A stretch of 59,962 nt of DNA, filler included, from Ionaspis alba (Eukaryota): NCBI GenBank assembly GCA_964255285.1. It is 4 parts of 4 records of this genome, joined end to end, with 100 filler letters (N's around TTAATTAATTAA, not from the genome) between each part and the next. Parts side by side here need not be neighbours in the genome. Positions count along the whole stretch, not along the records: positions 15,036 to 29,969 come from CAXUUL010000394.1; 3 more parts are not named here. One strand, given 5' to 3'. Shown piece by piece: positions 5,429 to 30,069 of the stretch (the first letter of the stretch is position 1; every line of letters starts with the position of its first letter). Below the pieces are notes generated by a model, which saw nothing but the letters and a program-made list of their open reading frames with translations, had not been told where the DNA came from and made no database searches. The position numbers were made by a program, and so were the translations under genes.

Positions 5429-6399
5429 CGAGTTCTAAGGAGACATTCAAGGTCAGTAATTTGTGTCTGGTTGACACTTTTTATGGGTGTTGTTGGTATC
5501 GGAAGACCATGGGAGGTAAGAGGGACTTTGTTGAATTCTGGTGTTTACTTTACCTGCAACAAAAATCATGAGCAACTGAAACCACCGTAAAACAGCGCAG
5601 CGCACGCAGATGAAGTAGCAGTACGAGCTTGATCGCGCCTGATGAAGTCAAGACGGTCGCTATATGCCTGGAAAATCCCACGAGGAAGTCGAGGGTCCTG
5701 GAACTAGGCTTGCTGGCCAGTAACGACGAATCTTGGTAGAGCGAATCCCATAGCAACGAGGCACGCTAAGCCCAACGGCAAAACTATTTATACCTGAATT
5801 ATCCAGGAATAGCATAAAGATCAACACACTACGAGCAATGTTTGCCCCTCGAGCGATAACAGTCTACCAAGATACAGGCTGGGAATAGAGTGCTGCAAAT
5901 GCGTTGTGGCAAGCAGTTCTCCTGGTTTGGTTCTTGTCTTGTTCACGCTTGGCTCCGGTTTGCCTTTCATGCCCCATGCCGCATGGCCAGCGTCGACAAC
6001 TTCGGGGGTTTTCACGAAAACCGGATTGATATCTTTATAGTCCGAAGCACGACAAGTTGACGCCATAGAGCAAGAAGCTGGATCTAAACAAGTCTGCTAT
6101 ATGACAACTCATGCAGCACAATCAAGCAGATACACGATGATCTCCTGTCAATCAAGTGGAATTCAATCGATTAGCTAAATTTGTTATAGTATCAATATGC
6201 CCTCCATTAAGGTGTTTTGGAATACTGCGACTAGCCATCCAACACCTTGCTCAATTCTAAAGAGACCCCGCAGCCTGGATCAAAGCAAAGTTTAGCAGCG
6301 GATCAGCGAGCATAAACCCAAGCATTTCGTGACAAGTGCGCAATTTACCAATTCTGCCAACAGCCGTCGGGTAGCCTACAGCGAGAAAGCTCGGAGGGT

Positions 6400-7368
6400 C
6401 TAATTGGATTTCTTGATATGCCCGTTTGATTGCGACTCTTTCGTAGACTTTGTCATCATCGTGAAAGCCTCTGCTGTTTCAACAAAGCTTCGATAGAGAA
6501 GGTCTGTTGCAGTTGGGTAAGCTTGTGTATCTATGGTACTGCACAATTCTGAGATATATCGACTTACAGCCAGGAATCATGATCCAGATGAAGTTCACAA
6601 AGAAATAATAACCCCAGAAGTATAGAGCCTCGGGCCGAGACCAGATTATGCCCTTATAGTATAGGTCGAACATGCTCGTTGCATAATATAGGATGAGCCC
6701 GTACATCTGACCGATGCATACTAGGGATTGCACCTGGTGGCGAAATGGGTTGTTGGTGGCAATGAAGTAGACTGTCAGGTATGATAGTGGACCCCACATG
6801 AACTATGCTCTTACGTTAGTCCCTACCCTCTTCATTGGTGGGCATCAGCTACGTACGGCTGTGCAAGTTTCCATGCATAGCACGAAGGGCTCTGACACGA
6901 GGTATCGCGAATCAGAGAGGGCGTACTCCTTCCACAGTTGTCCAAAGAAAGTCATCAAGCCTCCCATCCGAGTGTGATTCAGGGAGAAATAGCCTATGTC
7001 GGTCAACGTCGTCTCCAAGGATAAATGCACATCAATCATACATACCTTCGAAGAATAAGTGAATGCTACCAGCTATCAATATCTGGTTAGCTATGCTGCC
7101 CTCTTGAAGTCTTGAGGAGAAGCGACGTACTTAGCACAAACCAATGAAGCGCAAATTTATTTCCCGATGTTAAATTAGGTAGGAATCGCTCGACAGCCAT
7201 ATAGGTGGAGCCCATCAACACCACCATGCATCCAACGAAAGCCGCCAGCATGGTAGGCACATTCCAATCGTTTGCAAGGTATCCCACGATTTCGGACCCA
7301 AGAGGATAGAATGGGTGGAGAGGGGGCACCATCTCGGTGATGTTTTTGGCAAACTCGACAGCTTCCAT
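6400..7368 (-). CDS. EBP: Emopamil-binding-protein family sterol delta8-delta7 isomerase (4 exons)
   Basis: Exon ORFs carry HPFYP, QLWKEYALSDSRY, FVLCME, GQMYGLILYY and FWGYYFFVNFIWIMIP, typical of EBP/EXPERA. Three GT-AG introns; stop at 6400-6402. Confidence 0.9.
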
Positions 7369-15035: not shown

Positions 15036-15096
15036 ACTTCAAGCGTCACTTTCCCCAGTTCCACCTCTACTATTCCCCCTTGCGGTGGCACTCAAA

Positions 15097-15978
15097 ATGC
15101 TCGCCCCAGCCCGCCGTATCCCGTCACTCGTCCTCCGCCTTCACTCATCCCCCTTTGCCTCCCGCTCCTACGCCACAGCCGACCGGACCTCCGATCGAGT
15201 AGCAACGAACGACCCAAACCCCGTCAATCCAGCCCAAAACGTTTCCGAGACCAATGCGCTCCCAGTGAGCGCGGAGGGCAAGCGCGATGCTCCGTTGCAA
15301 GAAATGCCCGAAGACGCGGAATACCAGCGGCAGATGCAGGCGCCAAATCGGCGGTCAATCTGGAGTCGGAGCCAGGCCCCAAGGAGTCAGGCGATGAGTG
15401 GGCCGAGGTTTGAGCAGACGATTATGGAGATGCAGGTAGGTGCTTGAGAATTGGAGGATAGTAATCTGCTAGATGCTGGAAGTGGTCGATGGACTTTGTG
15501 TGCCTATTGTTTGTGAAGATGTGGGGCAGGACATGCAGTCCTGGAGCATGCTTCAATACGGCCTTGAAGTTCTACATACGTTGGCTAACCGTTTTGACTC
15601 ATAGCCGCAACCATATGCAGCAATCGATCTCATCCACAAGCAACCTGTCAGATGGACGGACGAGAGGGTGGTTTCTTGCGATGGAGGAGGAGGACCGCTA
15701 GGACATCCCAGGATATTCATCAACGTCGACAAGCCACAAATCAATATGTGCACTTATTGCGGACTCCCCTTTGTAAGTCATGTTGGGCTGTATCTCGCGG
15801 CTACGCCGAGGTTATGCCAGTGGTCAAAGGCTAACAAAAGACACGATAGGCACACAACCATCACCGGAAACACCTTGAAAGCTTGCCATCCACACCCTAC
15901 CCTCTCGAACCTACAAATGATCCTGCAGAAGTCAACGAAGCACAACGGCTGACGGATGAGCCATTCTCACAACGATGA
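15097..15978 (+). CDS. NDUFS6: NADH:ubiquinone oxidoreductase zinc-finger subunit (NDUFS6 / 18.4 kDa, zf-CHCC)
   Basis: Mitochondrial-type presequence, QAPNR..WSRSQ.PR, VSCDGGGGPLGHPRIFINVDKP...CTYCGLPF. Introns 15436-15604 and 15773-15849. Confidence 0.93.
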
Positions 15979-16136
15979 GAAAGGTGGAACAACTTGAAGA
16001 GACTGGCACTCTTAATTTGAGACCGGCGTTCATTGTATATAGCTATATATGGGGTTTCATAAGCTAAGCAAGAATTTACGGCACGCTACCCAAGTTTCTC
16101 TTCCACAAGAATTTACGCACCACATCCTTCAAGCCT

Positions 16137-16959
16137 TCACCCGCTGGCCTGAATCCAAGCCTCAGCATAAGCTATATCTGCCCTGACGCCGGCCCTCCTT
16201 CTCTCATTAGCTTGCTGCTTACCCAGCAACTCTTTTCGTTCTCTCCTCCACTCCGCAACAACCCTCTGATACTCTTCCCTCTTTCCCCATACATTCAGCA
16301 CTTCCTCCAAGACTTGTTCCCTACCAGCAGCAACATCTTCGCTGACACCTTCTGCCTCAATACGACTCGGCACCCACTCCTCCACAAACCACCTGTAGAC
16401 CTCTCTCTGTGCCATTCTCTTCCGATCATTTGCTTTCAAATCCTTGCGCACATAGACTCCCGGTCTAAAGAATCTCATACCAGCCACATACACCGCCATC
16501 TCCTCCTTCCTGCCAAAAACGCGCCAATATCGATTCTTATCAAGTTCCAAAAAACCAAGAACCTCGTCCGGCGAGGCTGTCAAGAACAGCATACTCTTCT
16601 TCCGATCTAGTCCCTCGATCTCAGCAATTCGCAAATATAGGCCAGTGTCTGTGGCCGTCAGTCCGGCGGCACGCAGGGAGGTGCCGATGATGTTCCACAG
16701 GTCGCCATGGGCATGGTGGAAGAGTTCCCAGTGGAAGGTTTCAGATGGGCAGACGTGAATGTCTAGCTGTATGTAGTCGTTTGGGGAACCAGGGTACGGA
16801 ACGGCATAGGACGTGGTGGCGCTCCCCGGTATTGTTATTGTGGCATGGGGTTCTAGGATTTGGGAAACGAGGGCGGGGGTCGTGGTTGCGCGTGGGGAGG
16901 CAACCAGGATATCCAGATCACCATGGGTAACCTTGCCGGGAGCGGGAAGCGGGGAAGAG
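16137..16959 (-). CDS. Uncharacterised nucleotidyltransferase-fold (Pol beta/X-like) protein, 5' end in gap
   Basis: The frame from the gap reads PAPGKVTHGDLDILV...YIQLDIHVC...HAHGDLWNIIG...GLYLRI...LFLTASPDEVLGFLELD and continues to the stop at 16137. Confidence 0.7.
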
Positions 16960-18252
16960 NNNNNNNNNNNNNNNNNNNNNNNNNNNNNNNNNNNNNNNNN
17001 NNNNNNNNNNNNNNNNNNNNNNNNNNNNNNNNNNNNNNNNNNNNNNNNNNNNNNNNNNNGTGCATGTACCTTACTTTGTTGCGATCAATAGAGAGTCTCC
17101 CAGCAATCAAAAGTCGCGAAAAGAATTCTTCAGATCGAACCTATGCATGAGTGCAGAGCATGTTGGGCCGTGCCAGCTCAGTACATGCACAGCAACAACG
17201 GGATCCTACAGATCCTCACAGCTATACCACCAAATCAAGACCCTAAGCGCATTCGACAGGAAGAACATCCCGATCACAAAAAAACGTACTAGCCTGCAGA
17301 AGACACTACATACGCATTGGGAGCACCAAGTGGCTCTATCGATTGTGCATCGCAAGCAGATATTGGAGTGAGATGCCGAAGTATTCTGTTCTTTTGAGAG
17401 GAGGAAGCCTTCTCATCACGATCTCCTGCTGCATATCAGATGACGGAGGGTTATGAACCAGGCTACTTTTTGCGGCGGATATGGTACAGCCTATTCGTAG
17501 TCCCACGGCTAGCATATCGATGCAGCCGGGTTGAACTGCAGTCGAGCAGTTGGTGGCTCGACCTTACGGCTCAACGACTCATCGGTGCATAAAGGTTGCG
17601 TATGTTGCCTCAGATCAGCCTACTATGGAGCACTTCGTAAGTCTCGTATGACCACGGGGCTATGAGAAAGTACCTCGTCTATCTCGTGGCGTGAGATACG
17701 AATCCGTATGAAATGTCTGCCTTGGGACATGCTGCTCCGATTTTGCCAGGATGCAGGTCACACCTGCGATCCGCAATTGCTAGGATTGTTGGTGGCGCCA
17801 TTATTACCCAGAAGGGTCGTCGGCTCCCGACTTGACCGGTGGAAGAGCTTGCGCCGTGCTAAACTCAACCAAACGACTGGGGGCTGATATTGCATAGCCC
17901 GGGCGCACGCATGCCTGGTTCGGAGTAAGCCTGCATTGTGTCATGCAGATTCGGCTCCGTCTGTACTGATGTCTATAAAAGGGATATATATCAACCTGAG
18001 TTTTCGTTGTCCTGTTTGCGCTGCCTTACCCGTCCATGTTTCCCTTAGACATATTGTACAGTCCATGATTTGTTTGCCTCTTCGTCGGGGACAGCGAGCC
18101 CTCCCGAGCGGAAGTCTGTAGTCATGCAGGTCGCCACCTTCAGCTTCGAAATCAAATTTGTGGATTCACAAGGCATGGATTTCTTCAGCTGTGTAGCCGT
18201 CATGGGAGCCTAGCGAAGGGATTACGCAACAACCAGGCGGCCTTCTTGACAC

Positions 18253-18273
18253 ATGACTCATTGCTGTATATAA
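18253..18273 (+). promoter_or_regulatory. Gcn4/CpcA (AP-1) consensus site followed by a TATA box
   Basis: ATGACTCAT at 18253-18261 and TATATAA at 18267-18273, about 270 bp upstream of the BCS1-like ATG. Confidence 0.4.
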
Positions 18274-18530
18274 TTCCCGTTACATCCTTAGCCGCAAGCG
18301 ATAGCGGTAGAGCCGCATAAGAACTCTCTACAGCTAAGTTGAAAGCGAGACTGGATATTGCCTGAGGGCTTCATTCACTGTACATATTGTTTGCTCTTTA
18401 CATAGTCTGGTTTTACTGTGAATTTCCTGTCTTTTCACTTGTCTTCATCTTGTCAAATAAGTGTCTATTGCCATAAAAAGAGGGGCCACTGCACACATTA
18501 CTCCCAAGACCAACTAAGAGCAGACCAAAT

Positions 18531-20321
18531 ATGAGCTTCAAATCCCTACCACAGATGCCCTCTACGGGCGAAAACGGCACTGGGAGCATTACTCAGCTAC
18601 CGGCCAATATTCTTGAGGCCTTCATCCCAGGATACTCCATAATATCCCGATTTCTACTCGAAGTCCTCGGTTTCGATATTACCGTCGTTGTGTCCGTCTG
18701 TTTTCTCATCTTTGGTCTAGCGACTTCGCTAAAATATCTCTACACTCATGCCTACGACCAGTTCAAGACCTTCTTCATGAGCTTCATCAGCATTGAGTCT
18801 GACGACGACATTTACGAGCACGTCATGGACTGGTTGGGAGAACAGCAGGTTTCGCAGAAAGCACAAGCTCTGATGGCCAGAACTGGCCATTATTCGTGGG
18901 ACGCAGATAATGCTGATGGAGATATGGACGACGGCGATGCTGATGAAGGAACCTATCTGAATTTCAGCAACTGGGACGCCAAAATACCTCCCAAATATCA
19001 ACCTTACTTTGGAAAGCATAGGTTCTGGCACAAGGGTAGATACTTCGAGCTGAGGAGGGAGACCAAGCAGCTTATGATGAGCACGGGCTGGGGTAACATG
19101 TTAAGGGATGAGGAGACTATCCGTTTGACTTGCATTGGGCGATCAACCCAACCAATCAAGGAGCTTATCAAGGAGTGTCAGAATCGCTATTTTGACAAGA
19201 AGTCTTCAAGAACAATCGTTCGAAGGCCAGCGACAAAGGAGATACGGTCGCGAGGTCGTAATCCCTGGACCAAAGTCGCTACTCGTCCTTCCAGACCAAT
19301 GAACACCGTCGTCCTCGAGCACGACCAGAAGGAACAGGTCTTGGCCGACATCAACGAATATCTCCATCCTGCGAGCCCCAGATGGTACGCCAATCGTGGT
19401 ATACCTTACCGGCGTGGATACCTCTTCCATGGTCCACCAGGTACAGGGAAAACGTCTCTTTCTTTCGCAATCGCTGGTATATTTGGATTGGACATCTACC
19501 TGGTGTCGCTCCTAGAGCCCACGTTGACCGAGGAAGATTTGGGACTGCTCTTCAACAATCTCCCTCGCCGCTGCGTTGTCCTTCTTGAAGACATTGATAG
19601 CGCGGGCCTGATCCGCCGCGACAACCTCCCCGAAACCACTGATCCATCACAGGATCTCAAAGACGCCAATACCCACATTGGTGTTGAAATCGCGAAAGCT
19701 TTCAAGTCTGTTCAGGACAAGAGCGATAAGAACAACAAAAACAACCAAGGAATCTCTCTTTCAGGGTTACTGAATGCAATCGACGGGGTGGCTTCTCATG
19801 AAGGTCGTGTCCTTGTCATGACAACCAATCATCCGGAAAAACTCGATGACGCCCTCATCCGCCCTGGTCGTGTCGATATGAAGGTCGGCTTCACGATGGC
19901 ATCTCACTCCCAGATCCGCGAGCTCTTCGAACGCATGTACAGCGCCGAGTCCAGCCGTATGGACTCTCCGTCCAAAACCGGTGGTGCTCACGCTCAGGAC
20001 GCCCAGCAGGCGCTGATCTCCACCCAACCCGTTGTGGTTGGCAAGCTGACTAACGGTAACGCCAAGTTACCAAATGGCACGGCGAGCCGCACACCCAGAT
20101 CAAGCACCTTTGACAAGAAATCCTTGACGAGACCGCTAGAGGATATCGCAAAAGACTTTGCAGATTGCCTGCCTGATGGTATTTTCACACCGGCTGAAAT
20201 CCAGGGTTTCTTACTAACGCAGAAGAAAGAGCCAGAAAAGGCGTTGAAGGAGGTCGGCGCCTGGAGAGACAAGACGTTGGAGGCCAAGGCGGCCAAGAGC
20301 AAGGGTATGGCTTCTCAGTGA
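18531..20321 (+). CDS. BCS1-like AAA ATPase
   Basis: Intronless 596 aa. N-terminal TM helix, BCS1_N-like region, WYANRGIPYRRGYLFHGPPGTGKTS (Walker A), VLLEDID (Walker B), SLSGLLNAIDG, MTTN, ALIRPGRVD, FTPAEIQG. Confidence 0.93.
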   Translation: MSFKSLPQMPSTGENGTGSITQLPANILEAFIPGYSIISRFLLEVLGFDITVVVSVCFLIFGLATSLKYLYTHAYDQFKTFFMSFISIESDDDIYEHVMDWLGEQQVSQKAQALMARTGHYSWDADNADGDMDDGDADEGTYLNFSNWDAKIPPKYQPYFGKHRFWHKGRYFELRRETKQLMMSTGWGNMLRDEETIRLTCIGRSTQPIKELIKECQNRYFDKKSSRTIVRRPATKEIRSRGRNPWTKVATRPSRPMNTVVLEHDQKEQVLADINEYLHPASPRWYANRGIPYRRGYLFHGPPGTGKTSLSFAIAGIFGLDIYLVSLLEPTLTEEDLGLLFNNLPRRCVVLLEDIDSAGLIRRDNLPETTDPSQDLKDANTHIGVEIAKAFKSVQDKSDKNNKNNQGISLSGLLNAIDGVASHEGRVLVMTTNHPEKLDDALIRPGRVDMKVGFTMASHSQIRELFERMYSAESSRMDSPSKTGGAHAQDAQQALISTQPVVVGKLTNGNAKLPNGTASRTPRSSTFDKKSLTRPLEDIAKDFADCLPDGIFTPAEIQGFLLTQKKEPEKALKEVGAWRDKTLEAKAAKSKGMASQ

Positions 20322-20992
20322 GGTCGAGTGGAGGTTTAGTGGAATTTTCGAAAGGTTTGGATGAAGGTGCCCGACCGTAGGGCCGGAAATTGATATTAAA
20401 TTGAATGGGACAATAGACAGGGATATCAAGATATACGACGATCTCAATGTGCAAACTATATACAGGTCGACACGAATAACAAAGAGAAATAAGGAAATAC
20501 GGGAGGGCGTTTGGTTTTCATGGGTGCATAGAAATGGGGCTCGCGCGGCATACTGGCTTGACAGTGCATCAAAACTAGATTGTTAATAGCCTTGGTTGAG
20601 AAACTGGCGCTTAGGAAATGAATCTATCAGCTTGGTGGAGCGAACAAAACCACTCGGGGTGTAGATTATCCAACTTGTTCCTCTGGTCTTTACTATACGG
20701 ACATAGCTAACGCACGACAAGCGCTCTTTGTACAAAAATGAAATCCATGATCTAGAATAGTGAAAAAGAAGTGAGAGTCATGTATGATCGAGACATCCTC
20801 CAAGACAATAAGTGTCAAGCAGTATCGAGCTTCATTAGTATTGGTTACTATCATGATCTATCGTGTAAACTCATTGCACCTTAAGCCCTAAGNNNNNNNN
20901 NNNNNNNNNNNNNNNNNNNNNNNNNNNNNNNNNNNNNNNNNNNNNNNNNNNNNNNNNNNNNNNNNNNNNNNNNNNNNNNNNNNNNNNNNNNN

Positions 20993-21345
20993 GTCTGATC
21001 TGGTACCTGCTGAGGATTTGGAAGGTCGAAGGATATATGCTCGAATAGATCCGGGATTAGTTGATACATTGATTGAATAGTATCGGAAGCTTGAGGGGGG
21101 GCCGGTGGTGCAACAGAGGGTGTCGCGGGTTTCCCAGCGTGACCGTGAGGCTTAGGGACCCCATTGGAGTGTGGCTGTGCGTGCCCGTCTCCACCGAGTC
21201 CACCACCACCGTGCCCGCCCTTGCCGTGCCTCCCGCCGCCGCCATGTCCGCTGCGAGCATCGCGAACTTCCAGATGTGGCGCTGCCACAGCAAGACTCGC
21301 TGAGCCAAGAATTGTAGTTAGAAGGACGACGCCTAGACCCTTCAT
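20993..21345 (-). CDS. Secreted Gly/His/Pro-rich protein, 3' end in gap
   Basis: Signal peptide MKGLGVVLLTTILGSASLAVAAP, then GHGGGGRHGKGGHGGGG...; the frame is open up to the N gap. Confidence 0.6.
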
Positions 21346-21815
21346 GACGACTAGTGAATCTGGAAATCTTGAAATCTGGAAATGTATTTGAATCCGGTAT
21401 GTGTGTAGAGAATGCAACGAGATGAACACTGTGCCAGACAGCTTAGAGAAGAAAGGAAATGATTGCAGTGCAGAAAATGATAAACAAGCACATCGCGAAC
21501 CATATATACCTCTTCCTGCGCGGCTTGCAGAAGCCAACTCAAAACTTGCTTATCAAACAGACAATAACTTGAGTTAGAATGCGGGAGGCGGGTAAAATCC
21601 TAGCGGCGTGCAGACGAAAGTTCGGAAAGTCGGTCCGTCTTCTGCGCCGTATGACCAATGCGCATCAGCCGCAATTAGATATCGTGATGACCAGCTGCCC
21701 TCAAATCCGGTCCGCGCGCAAAAGAACCTCAGCGAATGATGATTTTCCTATGTTTGAAAGGAAACCCTGAATGGAAGGATGAGCTACCCAATGATCAAGG
21801 AACCTAAATCGGTCG

Positions 21816-24800
21816 TTACAGAATTGCATCTATGATCGCACCCTTGATCATGCTTCTGATACTAAAATGATTCACCGGTCGTGAATTCGTAGGCTGTTGT
21901 AGATGATTCGGCAGTGGTTCGACTCTCGTCAGTGGTTCAACCTTTCCCAGTGGTTCGACTTTCGCCAGTGGTACGTCTTCCGTTGGAGATGGTATTTTTT
22001 GGGGCGCAGTAATATCCAGTATTTTCCGGCGTATGAGGAATTCCGTAAGATTTGGAACATTGTGCTTCTGAGCGAGAGAGTGCAGCGTATCACCGTATGC
22101 GTCCGGGACGTCATCAATCAACGGGGCATTGTCTAGGAGGAGTTGGATAACTGGCAGGTAGTTGCACCGCCATGGCTTGTTAGCGGTATTAGCCAAACCA
22201 TAGGCTCCTATTGCATAATGCGACGCCATCCGATTTATGTAGTCCTTCTTGAACCTTTCGGCGCCGTGTTTGAGCAGGAGTTTAGTCATTGGCAAGATCT
22301 CCCATACCAACTCGTGGTTCTCTCGGTATTGCACAATCTCCATCAGTGGAGTACTCTTGAAATCGTTTCCAGCATTGACATGGGCCCGTGCGCGAATCAG
22401 GATTTCTGCCATTTCTACGTAACCATAACGGCAGGCATAGTGCAATGGAGTGTTTCGCAAATTGTCTTCCACTCTGACACTGAAACCGGACTCGATCAGC
22501 AGAGACAGCAATCGCTTGTTTGGTGTCCGTACAGCCAAGTGAACTGGCGATTTCGTCCAGAGCAATCCGTTGGCTACCTTTCTGAATACCTTGCCGTGTT
22601 TGAGAAGGAACATAATGGACTTTTCGAAAACCGCTGCGGCATCACTGCCTTCCTCAACTGCGCAATATGCATCCAGAAGTTTATTAAACACCGTCAGACC
22701 GGAGGAGTCTTCTTGATCAATCGGAATACCGGCTGCCAGGAGGATATTCAATGTCCCTTCGTTGCATTGAACAGCGGCGCCATATAGAGCATCGCAGTCT
22801 CTATCCTGGACATCTCGATCAGAGGTGCTGGTAATCGGGGCAGACGTACGATTTCCTACAGGCGAAAGACTTTTGCGCCTCGTGCCTTTCTTTTCTGGAT
22901 TTAGTTTGTCATTTTCGTCCACGAGGAGCTGGGGAAGAAGTATTTGCCACTTTGGTTCATGAATATCGGAAGATAGTAGATCTCCCTCTTCTGCTTGATG
23001 ATACCCAGTAGTAAGGTCTGGAAGTGACACAACTCTTTTGGCTTCTGCGGTTATGGGTATTGCTAGCTGTTCTTTTGCGCCTCCAATCTTGTTGTCGGTC
23101 GAGCTCGAGTTCAAGGCACAGGGAGGCAATGCAGGCTTCCAAGACGGACGAGGGGGAAACTCGTGAAGAGCTTTAGGGGAGGAGCGATCTTTCTCAGGCT
23201 CTTCGGTTTGAGGCAATGCATGCTTCCAAGATGTACGAGGAGGGAGATACTCGTGAAGAGCTTTAGGGGAGGAGCGATCTTTCTCAGGCTCTTCGGTTTG
23301 AGGCAATGCATGCTTCCAAGATGTACGAGGAGGGAGATACTCGTGAAGAGCTTTAAGGGAGGAGCGATCCTTCTCAGGCTCTTTGATTTGAGGAAAGACA
23401 CGTCGATGAAGACTTGTTGCATTTGGACCTAGTCCTTTGTTCTGAGGCTGGTCCTTGACCGGTGTTGATAAGTCCAAGGTCCATAAAGAGTCCCTAATTT
23501 TATTCGGCACTGCAGGAGATCCAGCCAATGCAGTTATTGGGCTTGGAAAGTTGACGTCCGGCAATAACGAGTCCCATGGCTTGTTCGGGGCTACTCGAGG
23601 GGTCCCAGACGATGTGTTTGATGGGTTGGGCTCTATTATTCTCGGTATGTTAGTCGCTGTATTGTCCGACGTCTGCTCCTTTGGTCGAGGTGGCGTTGAT
23701 AGCCTTCTTGCGGAGGAACGAGGCGGCGCCGGCTCTGCTCTCAAGGTAGGAGCTATCGGTACACCCAGCGCCTGAGGTGAGGATGCCGTCTTGAGATGAC
23801 GTCTTTGCTTTCGAGATGCCAATATGTCCCTAGGCTCTAGAAATGGAGATGGTGAAGGCATTTTAGGACTGGAGGGCTCTACCTTCAGCGTCTCTTTCTG
23901 CTCAACGGTACTTTCCTTTGCATCGCCAGTCTTTGGCTTACTAGTCGAACGCCTCGGATTGGATATCGATGTGGGCTTTTTTGTAACCGAGTCGCGTACT
24001 TTCTCCTCCGTTGCCGTATTTGACGCTTCTAAATCTGAAAGTGCTAGATCAGAAGCTAAAGTCGCGGTCGGTGAAACATCAGGGCTGCCTCTCACAATCC
24101 ACGACTCTTTCAAGGCAACATCAACCTTTGGACGGTTCCGCGGTTGAACTGCCATCAGACCTCTGATGAAAGCACCTCCGTCTGAACTTATCTGCTGGGC
24201 GTGGAGAAGATCAAGCGGAAATGGAATTGTAGATCGGCAATATGAGCCAAGTGCATTGACTGAGAAGGGCACAGCTCCTACAACGAGCTGAAACAATATA
24301 CAACCAAGGCTCCACACATCCACAGCAGTTATAACTGTATCATTGGGCTCGATATCAATCAGTCCACGTATCTCGGGTGCCATGTAGTCCCAAGTGCCCA
24401 CCACAGTGTTCTGAAGGCTTTGACCGTCGAGGAATCTTTTACTCCCTCCAAAGTCCCCAATCTTGACCCACCATCTAGGCGAGGGACCAAAGACAAGAAT
24501 GTTCTGTGGTTTGAGATCACGATGCGTCCATCCCAGTGCGTGTAAATTTTGCAGTCCCTCCAAAAGCTGCTGGGCGATGTCTCTGACTTCGGTCTCAGGA
24601 AGCTTCTTATCAAGGTGTCGTTGCAGATCGCCATGTGGACAATACTGCATAGCAAGGAAGACGTATTCGAGAGACTCAAACCACCCATAGAACTGCACAA
24701 AGTACCTGTCGGCCTGTTTGTGCATTGTCAGCCAGGACACTTCTCTGAAAGTTACGCGGTCAGACAGACCTTGGACAGCCGGCTGAGGGCCAGTAGCTCC

Positions 24801-25066
24801 CTGTCATAGTCTATCGGGAGATCCTTCTTCTTGATCTGCTTCACTGCTCTTGATTTTCCCTTCGAATGCCGCTCGTGCTCGAGCCAAACGGTGCCAAATG
24901 TTCCATCGCCAATTTCTTGGATTCTTGTCCATTCCTTGACGATCCTGACGTTGCGCAAGCCCTTCTCTGGATCTGAAGTCTCGAGGATCTCCTTCGTAGA
25001 ACTGGTTACAGGATCGAAATGAGCATCCAATTTGAAGAAGCTGACAAGGTCGGACTTGAGCGCCAT
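21816..25066 (-). CDS. Ser/Thr protein kinase - disordered linker - ankyrin repeat protein
   Basis: Exon 1 has IGDGTFGTVW and AVKQI; intron 24714-24769; exon 2 has HRDLKPQNIL, KIGDFG, YMAPE and DVWSLG. C-terminal ankyrin repeats SPVHLAV, TPLHYAC, TPLMEIV. Confidence 0.92.
23124..23393. repeat. Coding tandem repeat, 90-bp unit, about 3 copies
   Basis: TCGTGAAGAGCTTTA recurs at 23161, 23251 and 23341. The repeat encodes EPEKDRSSPKALHEYLPPRTSWKHALPQTE. Confidence 0.95.
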
Positions 25067-25608
25067 TTGGCGCTGCCCTGAGACGTCCAGAGCAAAGCCT
25101 CCAAGTCTTGTACAGTCCGTTCACGCATCATACACGCCATAAAGCGTTCGAGATGAGCAAAGGTTCAACGATAGCTATTGGATCCAATCGCACATCGCGG
25201 ACAAGTGGTACCTACGATACCGACGCAGATTGAAGACCATTATCGATGTGAAGCATGCTGTAAGATATCGCATGAGACAGACCCTCAATGCGTCGAGAGC
25301 TGAAAGAGCTGCCCTAATCCTCAAAAAGTAAAGACTGTGGCGGACCCGAGTCGAGGTTCGGTGTTGCGGCCGAGGAGCGGCGGGTGGCTTGGATGGAAGA
25401 CCAAATGGGGCAGTCCAAGATTTGAATATGCCGGGAGAGAGACAACCCTTGACTGGTGGATGACTTCCTCCAAGACTTCACAGTCTCTCGCGTTGGAAAC
25501 ATAGCCTTGCCAATTAGATAATGGTATGAGAATATATTTATGCGTACCTTTATAGCACAATCAATATAGTTCTCAAGCGTACTGGATGTGTTATTCAGAT
25601 TAGGGGAA

Positions 25609-27345
25609 ATGGACGGAGTGAGCTTTGCTTTCGCGACACTAAGCGCGGTCGATTTATGCCTCAAGTACATCTCTCGTCCAACGATGAGTCCAGTAACATT
25701 GGCTGATAGAAACATGAGAGAAGGTACGGAAAAGAATTGATGAGACGATATCGAGTGTATCGGGACGCGGAAACCATCATCCATGAGCTTGTCCTACGCG
25801 TCGAGGATAGATGGCTCAAGATGGAGATTCAGATGGAGTTCCTGCGGTCCGTATGGGATACCTTAGAAGAGCGTCTGCAGCTACACCAAAATCGGGTGCT
25901 CCAGCTACTACTATCGAAGCTTCACGAAGCGCTGGCCATTTTCGACGGCACTGCTGATAGCGAGAAAGATGAGGTTGTTCGAAAAACCGTGGTTGGAAAG
26001 ATGGGTAAGTTGAAGAGAGCCAAATTCGCTATGTCCGTTCGAGACTGTCTGGTCAAGACCGTCCAAGAACTCGAACGCTGGCAAAGTGTCTTTGATCCCT
26101 CATGGTACATACTCATTCGTGTCCATCACTCTGCCATTGACAAGCAGCTTGCGCTGCGGCAGGTTGACGAGCATGCTCATGGTTCGTTATCAATCCTGGG
26201 AAGACTCCGCGCCAGTATCAATGCTCCCTCTGATACCCAGACTCAGAAGAGATCAGTGTTTGTGGAAGAAAGCATCCTGCAGCCAGAGCGATTCGCGATC
26301 CGTCATTCCCAATCTCAATCAGCGATCTTGAAGGCGAGCAAGGAGATGGTGCTCATGGATTCAATTCGCCCAGACGAGAGATTAGACATTACTGCCATGA
26401 CTAGAGACATACGGGACCTTGCAAGAAACCTGTATGAAGTAGACTGCTTTACGTTTGGATTACTCTCATGTCTCGGAGTTATCAAGGTAACTGGTACGGA
26501 GCGCAATATTACAGGCTTCGATTTTGTCTTCAGCATTCCGAAGAGTCTAAGTAATCCTCGAAGTCTTCGCAGCATTTTGCTTGCCCCCGGCTCAAAAACC
26601 TCTCTCAATGAACGTTTCGCTCTGGCAAAACTACTTGCCAGATCAGTCTTCTTTATGCATACTTCGAGCTTTGTGCACAAGAATATTCGTCCAGAGACTA
26701 TCGTTGTCTTCCAAGACGGGACATCGAAAATTGGGAAGCCCTTTCTCGTAGGCTTTGAAAAATTCCGAGTTGATACGACCCACACACACCGGCTTGGAGA
26801 CGACCTATGGGAGCGTAATCTGTACCGACATCCTCAACGACAAGGCCTGAGACCTGAGGAAGACTTCATCATGCAACATGACATATATTCCTTGGGTGTG
26901 GTTCTCCTAGAGATTGGACTACAGACTTCCTTCGTGCGGCTCACCCCGAGACCAATCGACGATAAGTCAGATACCGCTGGTAACAATGAGTCCAGTGAAG
27001 GCATAAGTCAAGCAACACCAACACCAATGCTCAAGATCGCGGATCTCTTGTCCTTGAAAAATATGCGGAAAAAGGCGGATGCTATCAAAGACCGTTTCAT
27101 AGCGATTGCAAATGAGCAACTACCGTGTGCTATGGGCCAGAGATACACAGATGTCGTGATTTCTTGTCTGACCTGCTTGGACAAAGATAACGGCTTCGGC
27201 GATCAGAGCGAGTTTGAGGATCAGGACGGGATACTTGTTGGTGTACGCTACATCGAGAAGGTAAGTCTTGAATCACGGCGATCTGCCGTCTAAGCTCACT
27301 AAGACCCTACAGATCCTTACTCAGCTCGATGGAATCTCCGTCTGA
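25609..27345 (+). CDS. HeLo-like (HET-s/LopB-type) helical domain fused to a pseudokinase
   Basis: Spliced start MDGVSFAFATLSAVDLCLKYGKEL (intron about 25666-25723) and a helical N-domain. Kinase-like C-lobe HKNIRPETIVVF, FLVGFE, LYRHPQRQG, HDIYSLGVVLLEIG. Last intron 27261-27312. Confidence 0.82.
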
Positions 27346-27808
27346 ATATTACAATTTTTGTAGAGTGACCACGAGAAGACCACCGCCTTCGAAAGCTGCC
27401 ATTAACGTGCATGGAGCATGGGCACCACCACCATGCACGAGCTGACCAGCAGCTATGTGACCATGAAGACCATCGATGCGTGGAGCCACAGTCTCAAGAG
27501 ATAGTTCCTTGGTCCGGAGCGTTATCATGCCATTTCCTGCCCAGTGAGCGAGTCAGAGCCTGAGAGTGAGAATGGACTAGGACCATGCTAGGGGCAATAA
27601 TAACAGTCACCAGCATATCACTTCTTCGGTAACGATCATGCGGTGTACAAAAGGAGTAACATCGAGTATGATTATAATATCATTATTCGTATCCTATATC
27701 TCTGGTATCTCTTTTTCCCAACTCCAGCGGCCATGCTCATCAAATCTATACCTCAATCCATGCTATGCAAAATAACTCCAAATGATTATACCATCCACCG
27801 ACCTCTCT

Positions 27809-29544
27809 TTATACTCGACCTCTTTCAAGGTCAACACTGATTTCCTTCTCAAGCTCCTTCTCTTCAGCCTCCGTAACCGGATCAGCCTGACCGGCTTTTT
27901 CTTGACCACCTTGGATCTTCGCCATTGCCTCTTCCGCCTCCCTTGCGAACTTACACATCTTTCTGATGGTGGCTCCATACTTATAGAACAAGATCGGGAA
28001 AGGAACACAAGCAAGTGCTAGGAAAGCAGGGATACTGCTTGCCCAATGGATCCCCAGTTTCTCGTACATCTGTGTGGTGAAGAGAGGGAAAGCTGCACCA
28101 AACAGAGATCGGAGGACACTGTTGGCGGCGAGAACGCTGGCAGCGTAGATGGTATACGAGTCGATGAGGTAGTTCATGATGCTGAGGAATACCATGACCA
28201 TACCAAATCCGAAGGGAGCCGTGCCAATGATCGAAACGATCCAATGAATTTCAGTGCCATTGGTCCAAGCAAACCAAAAGAGACCAATCGGGAGACAAAT
28301 TGAGCCAATAAGTGTCGGTGGTAAACGAGCCTCTGGAGGTGCGCCTCTCTCTCCAGCAGCTCTAGCCTTGGTCTCGACTCGCATATACCGTTTGTTGTCC
28401 CAGAAGGTATAAGCGACAGCGATGAGCATGCCGACAGCCACACCAAGGAAGGCCAAGCCTCCAATACCCGGAGACCAGCCTCGCTGCTGTTGATAGACAA
28501 TCGGAAAGGCGGCGAACATCATATAAAGCGTGCCATAAATGATGGCCATGTACACGCTAAGAAGTGCAACAATCGGCTCACGGAAGAGAAGGATCCATGG
28601 ACGCGACAGAGCAATTTTGAATGCTTGGATGAGCGACGGCTGAGCACTGGGCGATAGTGCGAGTTTCGAGCGATATATCCGGCCTGTCTCTTTCGACAAA
28701 GCTGCAGCCCGCTTACGGAGCAAGACTGGCGGGTAAGTCTCTGGGATCGTAAAGGTACCGATGATCCAAAGGGTACCGGAAAAGATCGCCAGAAGACCCT
28801 CGACCCAGCGCCAGCCTTTGGTCTCGCCTAGGAAGCCTCCAGCAATGGGACCGAGCTATTTAGATATATTAGCTGTCGTGTTCACAAATCGAGACGAAGA
28901 GTAGAACTTACCACCGGCCCCATAAACGGCGCCGCCGAGAAAACAGCCATTGCCAACCCGCGCTGATTCGCAGGAAACATATCCGCAATAACCCCACCCG
29001 CATTCGTCAACGGACTCGATCCAAACGCGCCCGCAAAAAACCTCATAAGCAACACCGTCTCAATATTCTTCCCTCCAGCGGCTCCGGCATTAAACGCCGT
29101 CAAAGCGCCATACGTTCCAAAAAACAAAATCTGCCTCCCATAAAGCTCGCTCAACGGCCCCCACATGAGCGGGCCAATCGCGAATCCCAGCACAAACAAC
29201 GACACCCCCAACACCGCGACCTCAGTGCCGATATGGAATTCCTGCATCAGTTGATTGATGCCACCCACATAGGCGGAGGAAACGAAGGAGACAGCGAGGG
29301 TGGCAAAGGCGACGAGGAGGGTGATGCTCCATTTTTTGAGCTGACTGAAACCCATGGGGTTGCGTGGGTCGTCGGGGATGAATTCCACGACGTAGGGATC
29401 GAGGTCTGTGCCGGAGCCGGCGTATTTGTGGGCGAGGACGGCAGGTGTGAGGAGGGAGTGCGAGGCGACGACTCGCCAGTGGGAGGGGATTGTGGGTTGG
29501 GGAGAGGGTTCGGTGAGGGTTTGGGAGGAGGTTTCCGAGTCCAT
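27809..29544 (-). CDS. MFS drug:H+ antiporter (DHA1 family)
   Basis: DDPRNPMGFS..KKW, SLFVLGFAIGPLMWGPLSELYGR, PETY, PPEARL, YLIDSY, AANSVLRS. Intron 28856-28911. Confidence 0.95.
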
Positions 29545-29969
29545 TTTGTGGGTGGGGAAGAGATTTCGGGTGGAAGAGAAGGAGGAAGGTGGAAGGGTCG
29601 TGTGGTAGAGGCCGATTCGACGGGTTGATGCTTTGTTGGTGGTTGAAGAACGTTGATGAGGAACGATGATGCTGATTAGAGTATAGGAAAAGTCCTTGGA
29701 TGTACTTGGTATGACACAATGCTAGGATGATTGAACACCAGGACAGAGCAGAAGTCTATATAGTACCTCTCTCGGATATACACGACCCACATCCAATGTC
29801 CGAGATACTCTCCTGCTCAGCTAAGGTAATCAAGAATGCGAAAGCAACGATGCAAGAACCAATACCGGCAGCCCGGTATAATAGTCGTCGATACTCTCTG
29901 CATAAAAAAACCCCGAACTCCCAATCCCCTTACCAATCCCCGCACTTTCCCCCAACGCGCAACCCGTAT

Positions 29970-30069
29970 NNNNNNNNNNNNNNNNNNNNNNNNNNNNNNN
30001 NNNNNNNNNNNNNTTAATTAATTAANNNNNNNNNNNNNNNNNNNNNNNNNNNNNNNNNNNNNNNNNNNN
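29970..30069. other. Artificial scaffold-joining linker
   Basis: N44 + TTAATTAATTAA + N44. Confidence 0.97.

Follow-up and report, generated by a model that had tools for sequence, protein, structure and literature searches.

Animal necroptosis runs on a single step, the phosphorylation of the pseudokinase MLKL by RIPK3. Whether a comparable step might be encoded in fungi is the question raised by a locus of Ionaspis alba (GenBank assembly GCA_964255285.1), which is located in a stretch of 59,962 nucleotides that was analysed as a whole and is referred to as the window (four parts of the assembly joined by filler; positions 15,036 to 29,969 stem from record CAXUUL010000394.1). On the plus strand of this window, a predicted three-exon gene, here termed gene A (25609-27345), encodes a product of about 541 amino acids in which an N-terminal helical bundle is followed by a pseudokinase. 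The original prediction held that this pseudokinase has degenerate motifs of the MLKL type, and that two adjacent Thr residues in its activation loop match the phosphorylation sites of MLKL and act as a phospho-switch. This interpretation is partly supported, with the candidate switch being relocated from positions +6/+7 to position +9, counted from the Glu of the GFE motif. The most valuable result lies outside the segment considered in that prediction (26676-26800): gene A and a neighbouring protein kinase gene, termed gene B, form a conserved kinase/pseudokinase gene pair.

Residues of the gene A product are numbered according to the main exon (P0001, 512 amino acids); addition of 19 gives the full-length number. 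The motifs in question are located inside a 527-codon open frame which constitutes the main exon, and positions 26676-26800 translate as HKNIRPETIVVFQDGTSKIGKPFLVGFEKFRVDTTHTHRLG. Translation bore out that HKN (H318-K319-N320; 26676..26684, +) replaces HRD and GFE (G343-F344-E345; 26751..26759, +) replaces DFG, the latter being followed by KFRVDTTHTHRLG; both replacements were likewise apparent from conservation and from a HMMER alignment to mouse MLKL, which pairs HKN with HRN and GFE with GFE. A Gly-rich loop had been reported as not evident, and indeed no GxGxxG precedes the β3-equivalent strand in either the query or the family consensus. At the position of the β3 (VAIK) Lys, D212 (26358..26360, +) is aligned to the Lys of VTIK in mouse MLKL, and Asp or Glu occupies this position in 135 of 144 relatives. 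Since the HRD Asp is replaced by Asn, the DFG Asp by Gly and the β3 Lys by Asp, and a Gly-rich loop is missing, the domain, judged by its sequence, cannot be catalytic. The loss of catalytic residues at the HKN, GFE and D212 positions is family-wide. GFE was taken as the DFG equivalent because of the MLKL alignment, the flanking model strands β8 (338-341) and β9 (347-349), and the conservation of F344. An alternative placement of the DFG equivalent five residues upstream, on K/S-P-F, was seen in HMMER alignments to BRAF and HRI; it was rejected in view of the MLKL alignment and the model strands, and because G343 and F344 are conserved. Asp212 and an αC residue, Arg230 (26412-26414), occur together in 111 of the 144 relatives and may represent a charge-reversed Lys-Glu pair. 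This was kept as an idea only, given that no covariation was detected (Fisher p = 0.61); the MLKL alignment sets the αC Glu opposite L232, two residues from R230.

An AlphaFold model of P0001, built on 77 sequences, had a mean predicted local distance difference test score (pLDDT) of 82.3 and consisted of long helices (2-122), three to four short helices (126-174) and a kinase fold (about 176-512). The short helices were delimited by DSSP of the models and connect bundle and kinase fold in a brace-like manner (26100..26246, +), while the pseudokinase domain (26250..27260, +) was delimited by VIA-align and by weak Pfam kinase matches. In VIA-align, the model matched MerTK (Z 20.1, root-mean-square deviation (rmsd) 3.4, 264 aligned) and BRAF (Z 19.7), as well as CTR1, RIPK4 and RIPK1 (Z 18.9), with a model range of about 172-512 throughout; Foldseek of the full model returned CDK, JAK and other kinases at E values of about 1e-8. 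The predicted structure is that of a bilobal protein kinase-like fold. Pfam matches on the C-lobe, to kinase and DUF7580 entries, were weak and sub-threshold. The best of them was DUF7580 (PF24476; residues 278-418, 23.4 bits, E 5.4e-5, below the gathering cut-off of 27 bits), which was also matched by 44 of 77 relatives at E ≤0.01 and by 33 of 73 at E ≤10. DUF7580 has no described function, and no paper naming it was found in a literature search.

The family comprises 3715 representatives (clustered at 50% identity) at E ≤0.001 and 435 at E ≤1e-30. Its named members are spread over Pezizomycotina, namely lichen-forming and other Lecanoromycetes, Eurotiomycetes, Dothideomycetes, Geoglossomycetes and Pezizomycetes, the closest named relatives being Xylographa proteins with 57-58% identity. 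Conservation was determined in three sets: 77 sequences with 40-59% identity to the query (A1); 73 cluster representatives with 33-51% identity (A2; 144 distinct sequences together with A1); and 62 metagenome loci, which were left from 80 after de-duplication at 95% nucleotide identity. H318, K319 and G343 were present in every sequence (77/77 A1, 73/73 A2, 62/62 loci). Conservation of N320 (69/77, 58/73 and 42/62), F344 (75/77, 69/73 plus 4 Tyr, and 61/62) and E345 (75/77, 44/73 plus 12 Asp, and 43/62) was less strict, and HKD was found in three of the 73 A2 relatives. As H, K and G are invariant in all three sets, the motifs are features of the family and not chance occurrences. Taken together, motifs, conservation and the HMMER alignment support the assignment of the gene A product as a pseudokinase with MLKL-type degenerate motifs.

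The activation loop gave a different picture from that originally predicted. T351 and T352 are present at +6/+7 after the Glu of GFE (26775..26780, +), as claimed; the expected conservation of Ser or Thr at these positions among homologues was not found. In set A1, +6 is Thr in 11 of 77 sequences and +7 is Thr in eight and Ser in four; the respective numbers were T4+S4 (+6) and T2+S2 (+7) of 73 in A2, where the eight most frequent residues were listed, and S2 (+6) and S2+T1 (+7) of 62 loci, where six were listed. Mostly, +6 is Asp or Glu and +7 is Gly (45/77 A1, 45/73 A2, 51/62 loci). Thr-Thr or Thr-Ser is retained in the nearest sub-clade only, that is, in P0005 and P0006 (both DTTRT), P0007 (ETTST), P0009 (DTSRT) and P0017 (STTMT). 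By contrast, T354 at +9 (T373 in the full-length product; 26784..26786, +) is Thr or Ser throughout (T61+S16 of 77 A1, T58+S15 of 73 A2, T59+S3 of 62 loci), so that the loop contains three hydroxyls in the clade of the window (T351, T352, T354) versus one in the family. What stands of the predicted activation-loop phospho-switch is thus a conserved loop hydroxyl, and what does not stand is its position. Equally invariant in all sequences of the three sets is R348 (+3 after GFE; 26766..26768, +), which is part of strand β9 (347-349). K319 immediately follows model strand β6 (316-318). The primary activation-loop phosphate of RD kinases is held by the HRD Arg together with a basic residue on β9, in PKA by R165 and K189 (with pT197); by analogy, K319 and R348 may occupy the positions of these phosphate-holding residues. 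In the AlphaFold model, T354 lies five residues past β9, and the loop (351-360) has a pLDDT of about 61 between confident segments. The activation segment ends with a near-invariant YRHPQRQG (26823..26846, +), which is aligned to IYVSPER of MLKL.

To locate homologues of gene B, its kinase domain was used in a tblastn search against the 80 loci, and counts were made over the 62 de-duplicated groups, 35 of which have an upstream flank of at least 1.5 kb. In 21 of these 35 loci, a homologous kinase (31-45% identity) is encoded on the opposite strand 746-1417 bp upstream of the pseudokinase gene; the spacing in the window is 921 bp by the same measure. One further locus has a divergent kinase at 2.8 kb, three have it upstream on the same strand and two downstream, such that a kinase is present within 3 kb in 27 of 35 loci. 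Outside these 35, the cut start of such a kinase is seen in two loci with short flanks, and one locus has a kinase downstream. Overall, 30 kinase matches were located within 3 kb (243,756 bp) and one beyond (267,269 bp; binomial p = 3.8e-9), which corresponds to densities of 12.3 and 0.37 per 100 kb, an approximately 30-fold difference. Kinases of the gene B type recur beside pseudokinases whose identity to the query is no more than 35-48%, and pairs are also found in the named species Endocarpon pusillum, where GJ744_001724 (kinase-TPR) adjoins GJ744_001725 (pseudokinase), and Fonsecaea erecta (AYL99_08440 and AYL99_08442). The neighbouring kinase, which the original prediction had named only as an enzyme for an in vitro assay, is thus a conserved partner.

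Apparent rearrangements were noted at some of these loci. Two contigs that are 93-96% identical (L048:6972-9757 and L060:7005-9758) differ by the inversion of a 2.8-kb segment with the partner kinase, so that one contig has the kinase in divergent orientation and the other has it on the strand of the pseudokinase gene. The pseudokinase genes of L002 and L003 are 95% identical, with similarity ending about 300 bp upstream; L003 has a divergent kinase, L002 does not, and the far upstream region of L002 matches the downstream region of L003. This difference represents either a rearrangement or an assembly chimera. Just past the partner kinase, L003 carries a second protein kinase domain (6041-6820, minus strand; Pfam E 4.8e-27), which may be part of a tandem kinase or of another gene.

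The partners appear to be active kinases. Among 38 loci with a match, DFG was found in 35 (two of the three misses being cut by the contig end) and HRD[LIVM]K in 32, and the partners have K[IL][GA]DFG[IV]SKR and N-terminal LVxxFKLDA motifs in common. Their C-terminal parts are variable: in 27 locus groups, WD40 repeats were recognised in six, ankyrin repeats in three, TPR in one, KA1 in one and nothing in the rest (100 of 110 open reading frames (ORFs) scanned; the ten dropped overlapped with the pseudokinase gene or were short frames overlapping others). Likewise, the best 17 database relatives of the partner kinase, from a search confined to proteins of 547-1742 amino acids, include six with ankyrin, five with WD40 and one with TPR repeats. 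Such repeats are the usual sensors of fungal NLRs and gasdermin-activating proteases (PMC12881547).

Gene B itself is predicted on the minus strand (21816..25066) and its product reads as a CAMK-like Ser/Thr kinase that is intact and is followed by a linker containing repeats and, at the C-terminus, by ankyrin repeats. Its exon 1 (25066-24770) encodes the Gly-rich loop GDGTFGTV and AVK; a 56-nt intron (24769-24714) separates it from exon 2 (24713-21816), which encodes HRDLKPQN (24501-24524), DFG (24447-24455) and APE, then the linker and the ankyrin repeats (about 22305-22616). The long low-complexity linker includes a 90-bp tandem repeat (23123-23393; 3.0 copies, 94% matches) that encodes three copies of a unit of about 30 amino acids (..EPEKDRSSPKALHEYLPPRTSWKHALPQT..). 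The best relatives of the kinase domain in the Protein Data Bank (PDB) are Rad53 (7e-25), PLK1-3, STK17, CaMK1, ULK1 and Aurora. The start codons of gene B and gene A are separated by 542 bp (25067..25608), a region which may serve as a shared promoter for the two divergent genes. Database model P0263 (969 amino acids) of gene B looks truncated, as its start is an internal Met and the exon encoding the Gly-rich loop and β3 Lys is missing from it.

Similarity of the family to MLKL was assessed by comparing the family profile with PDB sequences. Of 127 matches, HRI ranked first (E 2.6e-7, 32.8 bits) and full-length mouse MLKL second (4btf_A; E 4.8e-7, 31.9 bits), the latter being the sole long alignment (profile 16-415 versus chain 12-398). 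Represented by its pseudokinase domain only (4m68_A), MLKL ranked seventh with 29.6 bits. When the single sequence was searched, BRAF was the best match (4.7e-7) and MLKL was not among the best 60 matches listed. The alignment of the profile to 4btf_A pairs VHKNirPE with LHRNISSS, LvGFEkfRsaegkTlrigD with LAGFELSKTQNSISRTAKS, and nLYrHPsR with TIYVSPER. It confirms the claim that mouse MLKL carries HRN and GFE. By sequence, gene A encodes a C-terminal pseudokinase with H-x-N/K and GFE as in MLKL. The catalytic-loop motif of human MLKL is HGK. With the Glu of human GFE as residue 351, +6/+7 would correspond to T357/S358 and +9 to S360 of human MLKL by ungapped count. That T357 and S358 are the RIPK3 sites was confirmed from PMC7305131 and PMC10603135, and RIPK3-dependent sites of the human MLKL domain comprise T355, T357, S358 and S360 (PMC10603135). 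Counted in the same way, +7 is mouse MLKL chain index 350, that is S345 after a 5-residue chain offset inferred from Q343 as named in PMC7305131, and +9 is chain index 352. On this ungapped count the positional argument for +6/+7 holds; what the fungal family conserves instead is +9. The relation to MLKL may reflect either homology or convergence, with MLKL ranking second at an E-value like that of other kinases.

The N-terminal helical bundle (P0001 1-122; 25725..26090, +) was delimited with the models and with ESM Atlas neighbours, and is HeLo-like by this lead only. A separate model of residues 1-176 had a pLDDT of 80.1. Its Foldseek search returned no PDB match at E ≤0.001, and VIA-align against 48,161 chains retrieved generic helical bundles (best Z 11.2). 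The best 50 rows included the coiled-coil (CC) domain of a wheat resistosome (Z 8.0), barley MLA13 (Z 7.8), the CC-R domain of NRG1.1 (Z 7.4) and the N-terminal domain of HET-S (2wvo_A; Z 6.8, rmsd 3.7, 108 aligned), and did not include MLKL. In ESM Atlas, features of residues 1-170 were closest to HeLo clusters (0.92, 0.90, 0.88; 8 of the best 10). When the protein was compared as a whole, the nearest clusters (score 0.99) consisted of ascomycete proteins with a length of about 500-640 amino acids, with Pfam HeLo on 11%, 32% and 98% of their members in addition to DUF7580 or kinase matches; one of these clusters bears the name 'Het-s domain-containing protein'. The annotation of one homologue is that of a HET-s/LopB domain protein. 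Because sister clusters in ESM Atlas carry Pfam HeLo, the N-terminal domain is likely a divergent HeLo domain. The hydrophobic N-terminus M[ED]P..DLC[IL]K is presumably typical of fungal membrane-targeting bundles. A related ESM Atlas cluster of ascomycete proteins of about 736 amino acids has DUF7580 on 42% and Peptidase_C14 (caspase-like) on 15% of its members; going by these domain matches, it is another link of this pseudokinase type to cell-death domains.

Genes A and B might together encode a module of a sensor kinase and an MLKL-like executioner whose switch is centred on +9, a reading that we regard as quite possible, if still short of probable. The repeat domain of gene B would sense a trigger, upon which its kinase domain would phosphorylate the activation loop of the gene A product. 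The core acceptor would be T354 (T373 in the full-length product), the +9 position that is Thr or Ser throughout the family; its phosphorylated form may dock on two invariant basic residues, the Lys of HKN and the β9 Arg at +3. In the lineage of the window, T351 and T352 may serve as extra sites. The ensuing conformational change would release the N-terminal bundle, which would then oligomerise and attack membranes in the manner of MLKL. The observed part of this account consists of gene structure, motifs, conservation, predicted fold, gene pairing and the intact motifs and repeats of the partner; that phosphorylation takes place, at which residue, how the bundle is released and that cell death results is what we infer from it.

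A number of observations weigh against such a module. In the profile comparison, MLKL (31.9 bits) did not score better than HRI (32.8 bits), TYK2 (31.3), LIMK1 (30.9) or BRAF (28.5), and full-length MLKL gained only about 2 bits over its pseudokinase domain alone. MLKL was not among the best 50 Foldseek or the best 50 VIA-align rows of the full model, an absence which says little because the kinase rows are all tied within about 2 Z units. The β3 Lys is lost in the gene A family (Asp), unlike in MLKL, which retains the β3 Lys/αC Glu pair (PMC7305131). Gene B is closest to Rad53, PLK and CaMK and not to RIPK, a kinase of the TKL group. For the N-terminal domain, the scores of HET-S (Z 6.8) and of the plant CC domains (Z 7.4-8.0) are inside the noise range of helical bundles; Pfam HeLo (PF14479) was detected in 0 of 77 relatives at E ≤0.01 and in 0 of 73 at E ≤10; and an N-domain profile of 45 sequences (A4) had its best PDB match in an unrelated receptor (E 0.19) and no match at E ≤0.01 among database proteins of 83-324 amino acids. 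Regarding the pairing, 8 of the 35 loci have no kinase in their flank, including that of the closest metagenome relative (L001, 48% identity), and the counts represent an enrichment and not independent events, as the loci are related and come from metagenome assemblies. The +9 Thr/Ser is also invariant in all eight flanked loci without a neighbouring kinase (8/8), so that its conservation does not track the pairing and could be structural.

These points bear on the alternatives to different extents. The switch originally proposed, with Thr-Thr at +6/+7 as counterpart of human MLKL T357/S358, agrees with the ungapped count (+7 matching mouse S345, and +6/+7 the human sites) and with the retention of TT/TS in the nearest relatives, P0005, P0006, P0007, P0009 and P0017. 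It cannot be the mechanism of the family because most members lack Ser/Thr at these positions, +6 being mostly Asp/Glu and +7 mostly Gly; this makes it quite improbable as the phospho-switch, and T351/T352 may rather be accessory sites in the window clade. Residual activity of the gene A product as an atypical kinase would fit its well-predicted kinase fold and the HKD of three among 73 relatives. Considering the family-wide replacement of the catalytic Asp by Asn, of the DFG Asp by Gly and of the β3 Lys by Asp, along with the missing Gly-rich loop, we give this next to no credence.

Alternatively, the pseudokinase could be a scaffold or allosteric regulator of its neighbour, with N-terminal helices that dimerise, a +9 residue acting as structural hydrogen-bond donor, and no cell-death output. 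Conserved pairing is compatible with a functional partnership of whatever kind, the +9 residue is just as invariant at loci that lack an adjacent kinase, and the N-terminal domain is not demonstrably HeLo. On the other side, the hydrophobic N-terminus M[ED]P..DLC[IL]K fits fungal membrane-targeting bundles, up to 98% of the proteins in sister ESM Atlas clusters have Pfam HeLo, and the domain layout is collinear with that of MLKL. Moreover, the variable WD40, ankyrin and TPR tails of the partner resemble sensor modules and not a fixed enzyme complex, and all in all such a regulatory role is judged somewhat unlikely. Slightly less weight still is given to the view that the two genes are merely co-regulated via a shared promoter, or that the pseudokinase is activated otherwise, by oligomerisation or by another kinase. 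It would account for the eight loci of 35 without an adjacent kinase, the five of 35 with the kinase on the same strand or downstream, and the inverted kinase segment that separates the nearly identical contigs L048 and L060; it does not sit well with a kinase-match density about 30-fold higher within 3 kb than beyond, nor with the recurrence of the same kinase family across pseudokinases only 35-48% identical to the query.

The reading of genes A and B as a kinase-triggered executioner module can be extended to the family. In its broadest form, a necroptosis-like module without NLR or amyloid would be widespread in Pezizomycotina, where a kinase with WD40, ankyrin or TPR repeats would phosphorylate the invariant loop Thr/Ser of an adjacent HeLo-pseudokinase and thereby release a membrane-attacking bundle. 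This generalisation is tentative and, on balance, more doubtful than the reading for the locus itself. If it is true, the logic of a kinase activating an MLKL-type executioner operates in fungi, be it by shared ancestry, in view of the same HxN/GFE degeneration, or by striking convergence. The known mode of activation for fungal relatives of the MLKL killer domain has so far been amyloid templating by NLRs. A conserved fungal pair would add to this a second route of regulated cell death that relies on phosphorylation, and would bear on the question of an ancient versus a repeated origin of the MLKL architecture. It also offers testable handles in the form of one invariant Thr/Ser, one Lys and one Arg.

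The splice model of gene A rests on the starts, junctions and ends of homologues. Exon 1 (25609..25664, +) encodes MDGVSFAFATLSAVDLCL plus 2 nt, a predicted short hydrophobic N-terminal helix, and is followed by the phase-2 intron 1 (25665..25723, +; 59 nt, GTACAT...AG). Annotated N-termini of homologues read M[ED]P[VA][GS]...DLC[IL]K, with a splice junction immediately ahead of YGK that matches the one in gene A. Use of the acceptor at 25723 results in ...CLK|YGK, matching the homologues; an alternative acceptor is located at 25720. In all 44 relatives with an extracted N-terminus, the long exon starts within about 2 residues of the same place, mostly with YGK or YGx, and the position of intron 1 is therefore apparently conserved family-wide. 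The main exon (25724..27260, +; P0001 corresponding to 25725-27260) is separated by intron 2 (27261..27312, +; 52 nt, GTAAGT...CTAAG...CAG) from exon 3 (27313..27345, +), which encodes ILTQLDGISV and a stop codon. The spliced C-terminus VRYIEK|ILTQLDGISV agrees with homologue P0056 (...VRYIEKVLLRIHEISV) and with homologue C-termini of the form ...VRYIEKV..I.V. Database model P0003 (486 amino acids) looks truncated: its start is an internal Met, so that about 55 residues are missing at the beginning, and it reads through intron 2.

Beyond the pair, the large ORFs of the window are of a housekeeping type and include a RhoGEF-like DH/PH protein, a GH1 glycosidase, isopropylmalate synthase, BCS1, GDA1/CD39, mitochondrial RNA polymerase, eIF4G and DNA polymerase alpha. 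Among these large ORFs, none close to the pair is an NLR or HET-domain gene. A gene for an MFS transporter (27809-29721, minus strand) lies beside a run of N (about 29970-30060) which appears as X in ORF translations.

In the literature searched, which comprised neither subscription journals nor supplements, no description was found of the kinase pairing, of the invariant +9 residue or of the fungal HxN/GFE identity; the same three points are undescribed in the available parts of PMC9815663, PMC10197012 and PMC12258605. A 2025 review devotes one sentence to the architecture, with no further analysis in the part available (PMC12881547).

Among known systems, MLKL/RIPK3 shares with the fungal pair a layout in which short helices connect an N-terminal helical bundle to a C-terminal pseudokinase, H-x-N and GFE motifs that match those of mouse MLKL residue by residue in the alignment, an activation segment comparable in length with hydroxyls at the positions of the MLKL RIPK3 sites, and a dedicated active kinase partner, as judged here by gene adjacency. 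It differs in that the gene A family has Asp for the β3 Lys and its conserved candidate acceptor at +9 and not at +6/+7, and in that the fungal partner is CAMK-like with WD40, ankyrin or TPR tails, whereas RIPK3 is a RIP kinase of the TKL group. The overall similarity of the gene A family to MLKL is no higher than that to other kinases. Plant MLKLs (AtMLKL1-3) likewise combine a HeLo-type bundle, a brace and a pseudokinase outside animals, and phosphomimetics of Ser residues in their activation loop alter activity; the authors describe them as structural homologues and consider convergence likely (bioRxiv 10.1101/681015). Unlike gene A, they belong to a different kingdom and have no adjacent activating kinase described in the available text of that preprint.

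Two fungal systems show resemblances of another kind. HeLo/HELL proteins such as HET-S and HELLP have an N-terminal helical bundle of the killer type with a hydrophobic first helix, are encoded beside their own activator, and are activated by NLRs via amyloid templating (PMC12881547). In gene A, a pseudokinase forms the C-terminal regulatory part, where they have a prion-forming motif; the adjacent gene encodes a repeat-bearing kinase and not an NLR, and Pfam HeLo was undetected in its subfamily. Pairs of a fungal gasdermin and a protease, finally, also consist of an inactive pore-former beside an enzyme fused to WD40, TPR or ankyrin repeats (PMC12881547). The proteins of the two systems are unrelated, and activation is by proteolysis in the gasdermin pairs, whereas it would proceed by phosphorylation in the pair of genes A and B.

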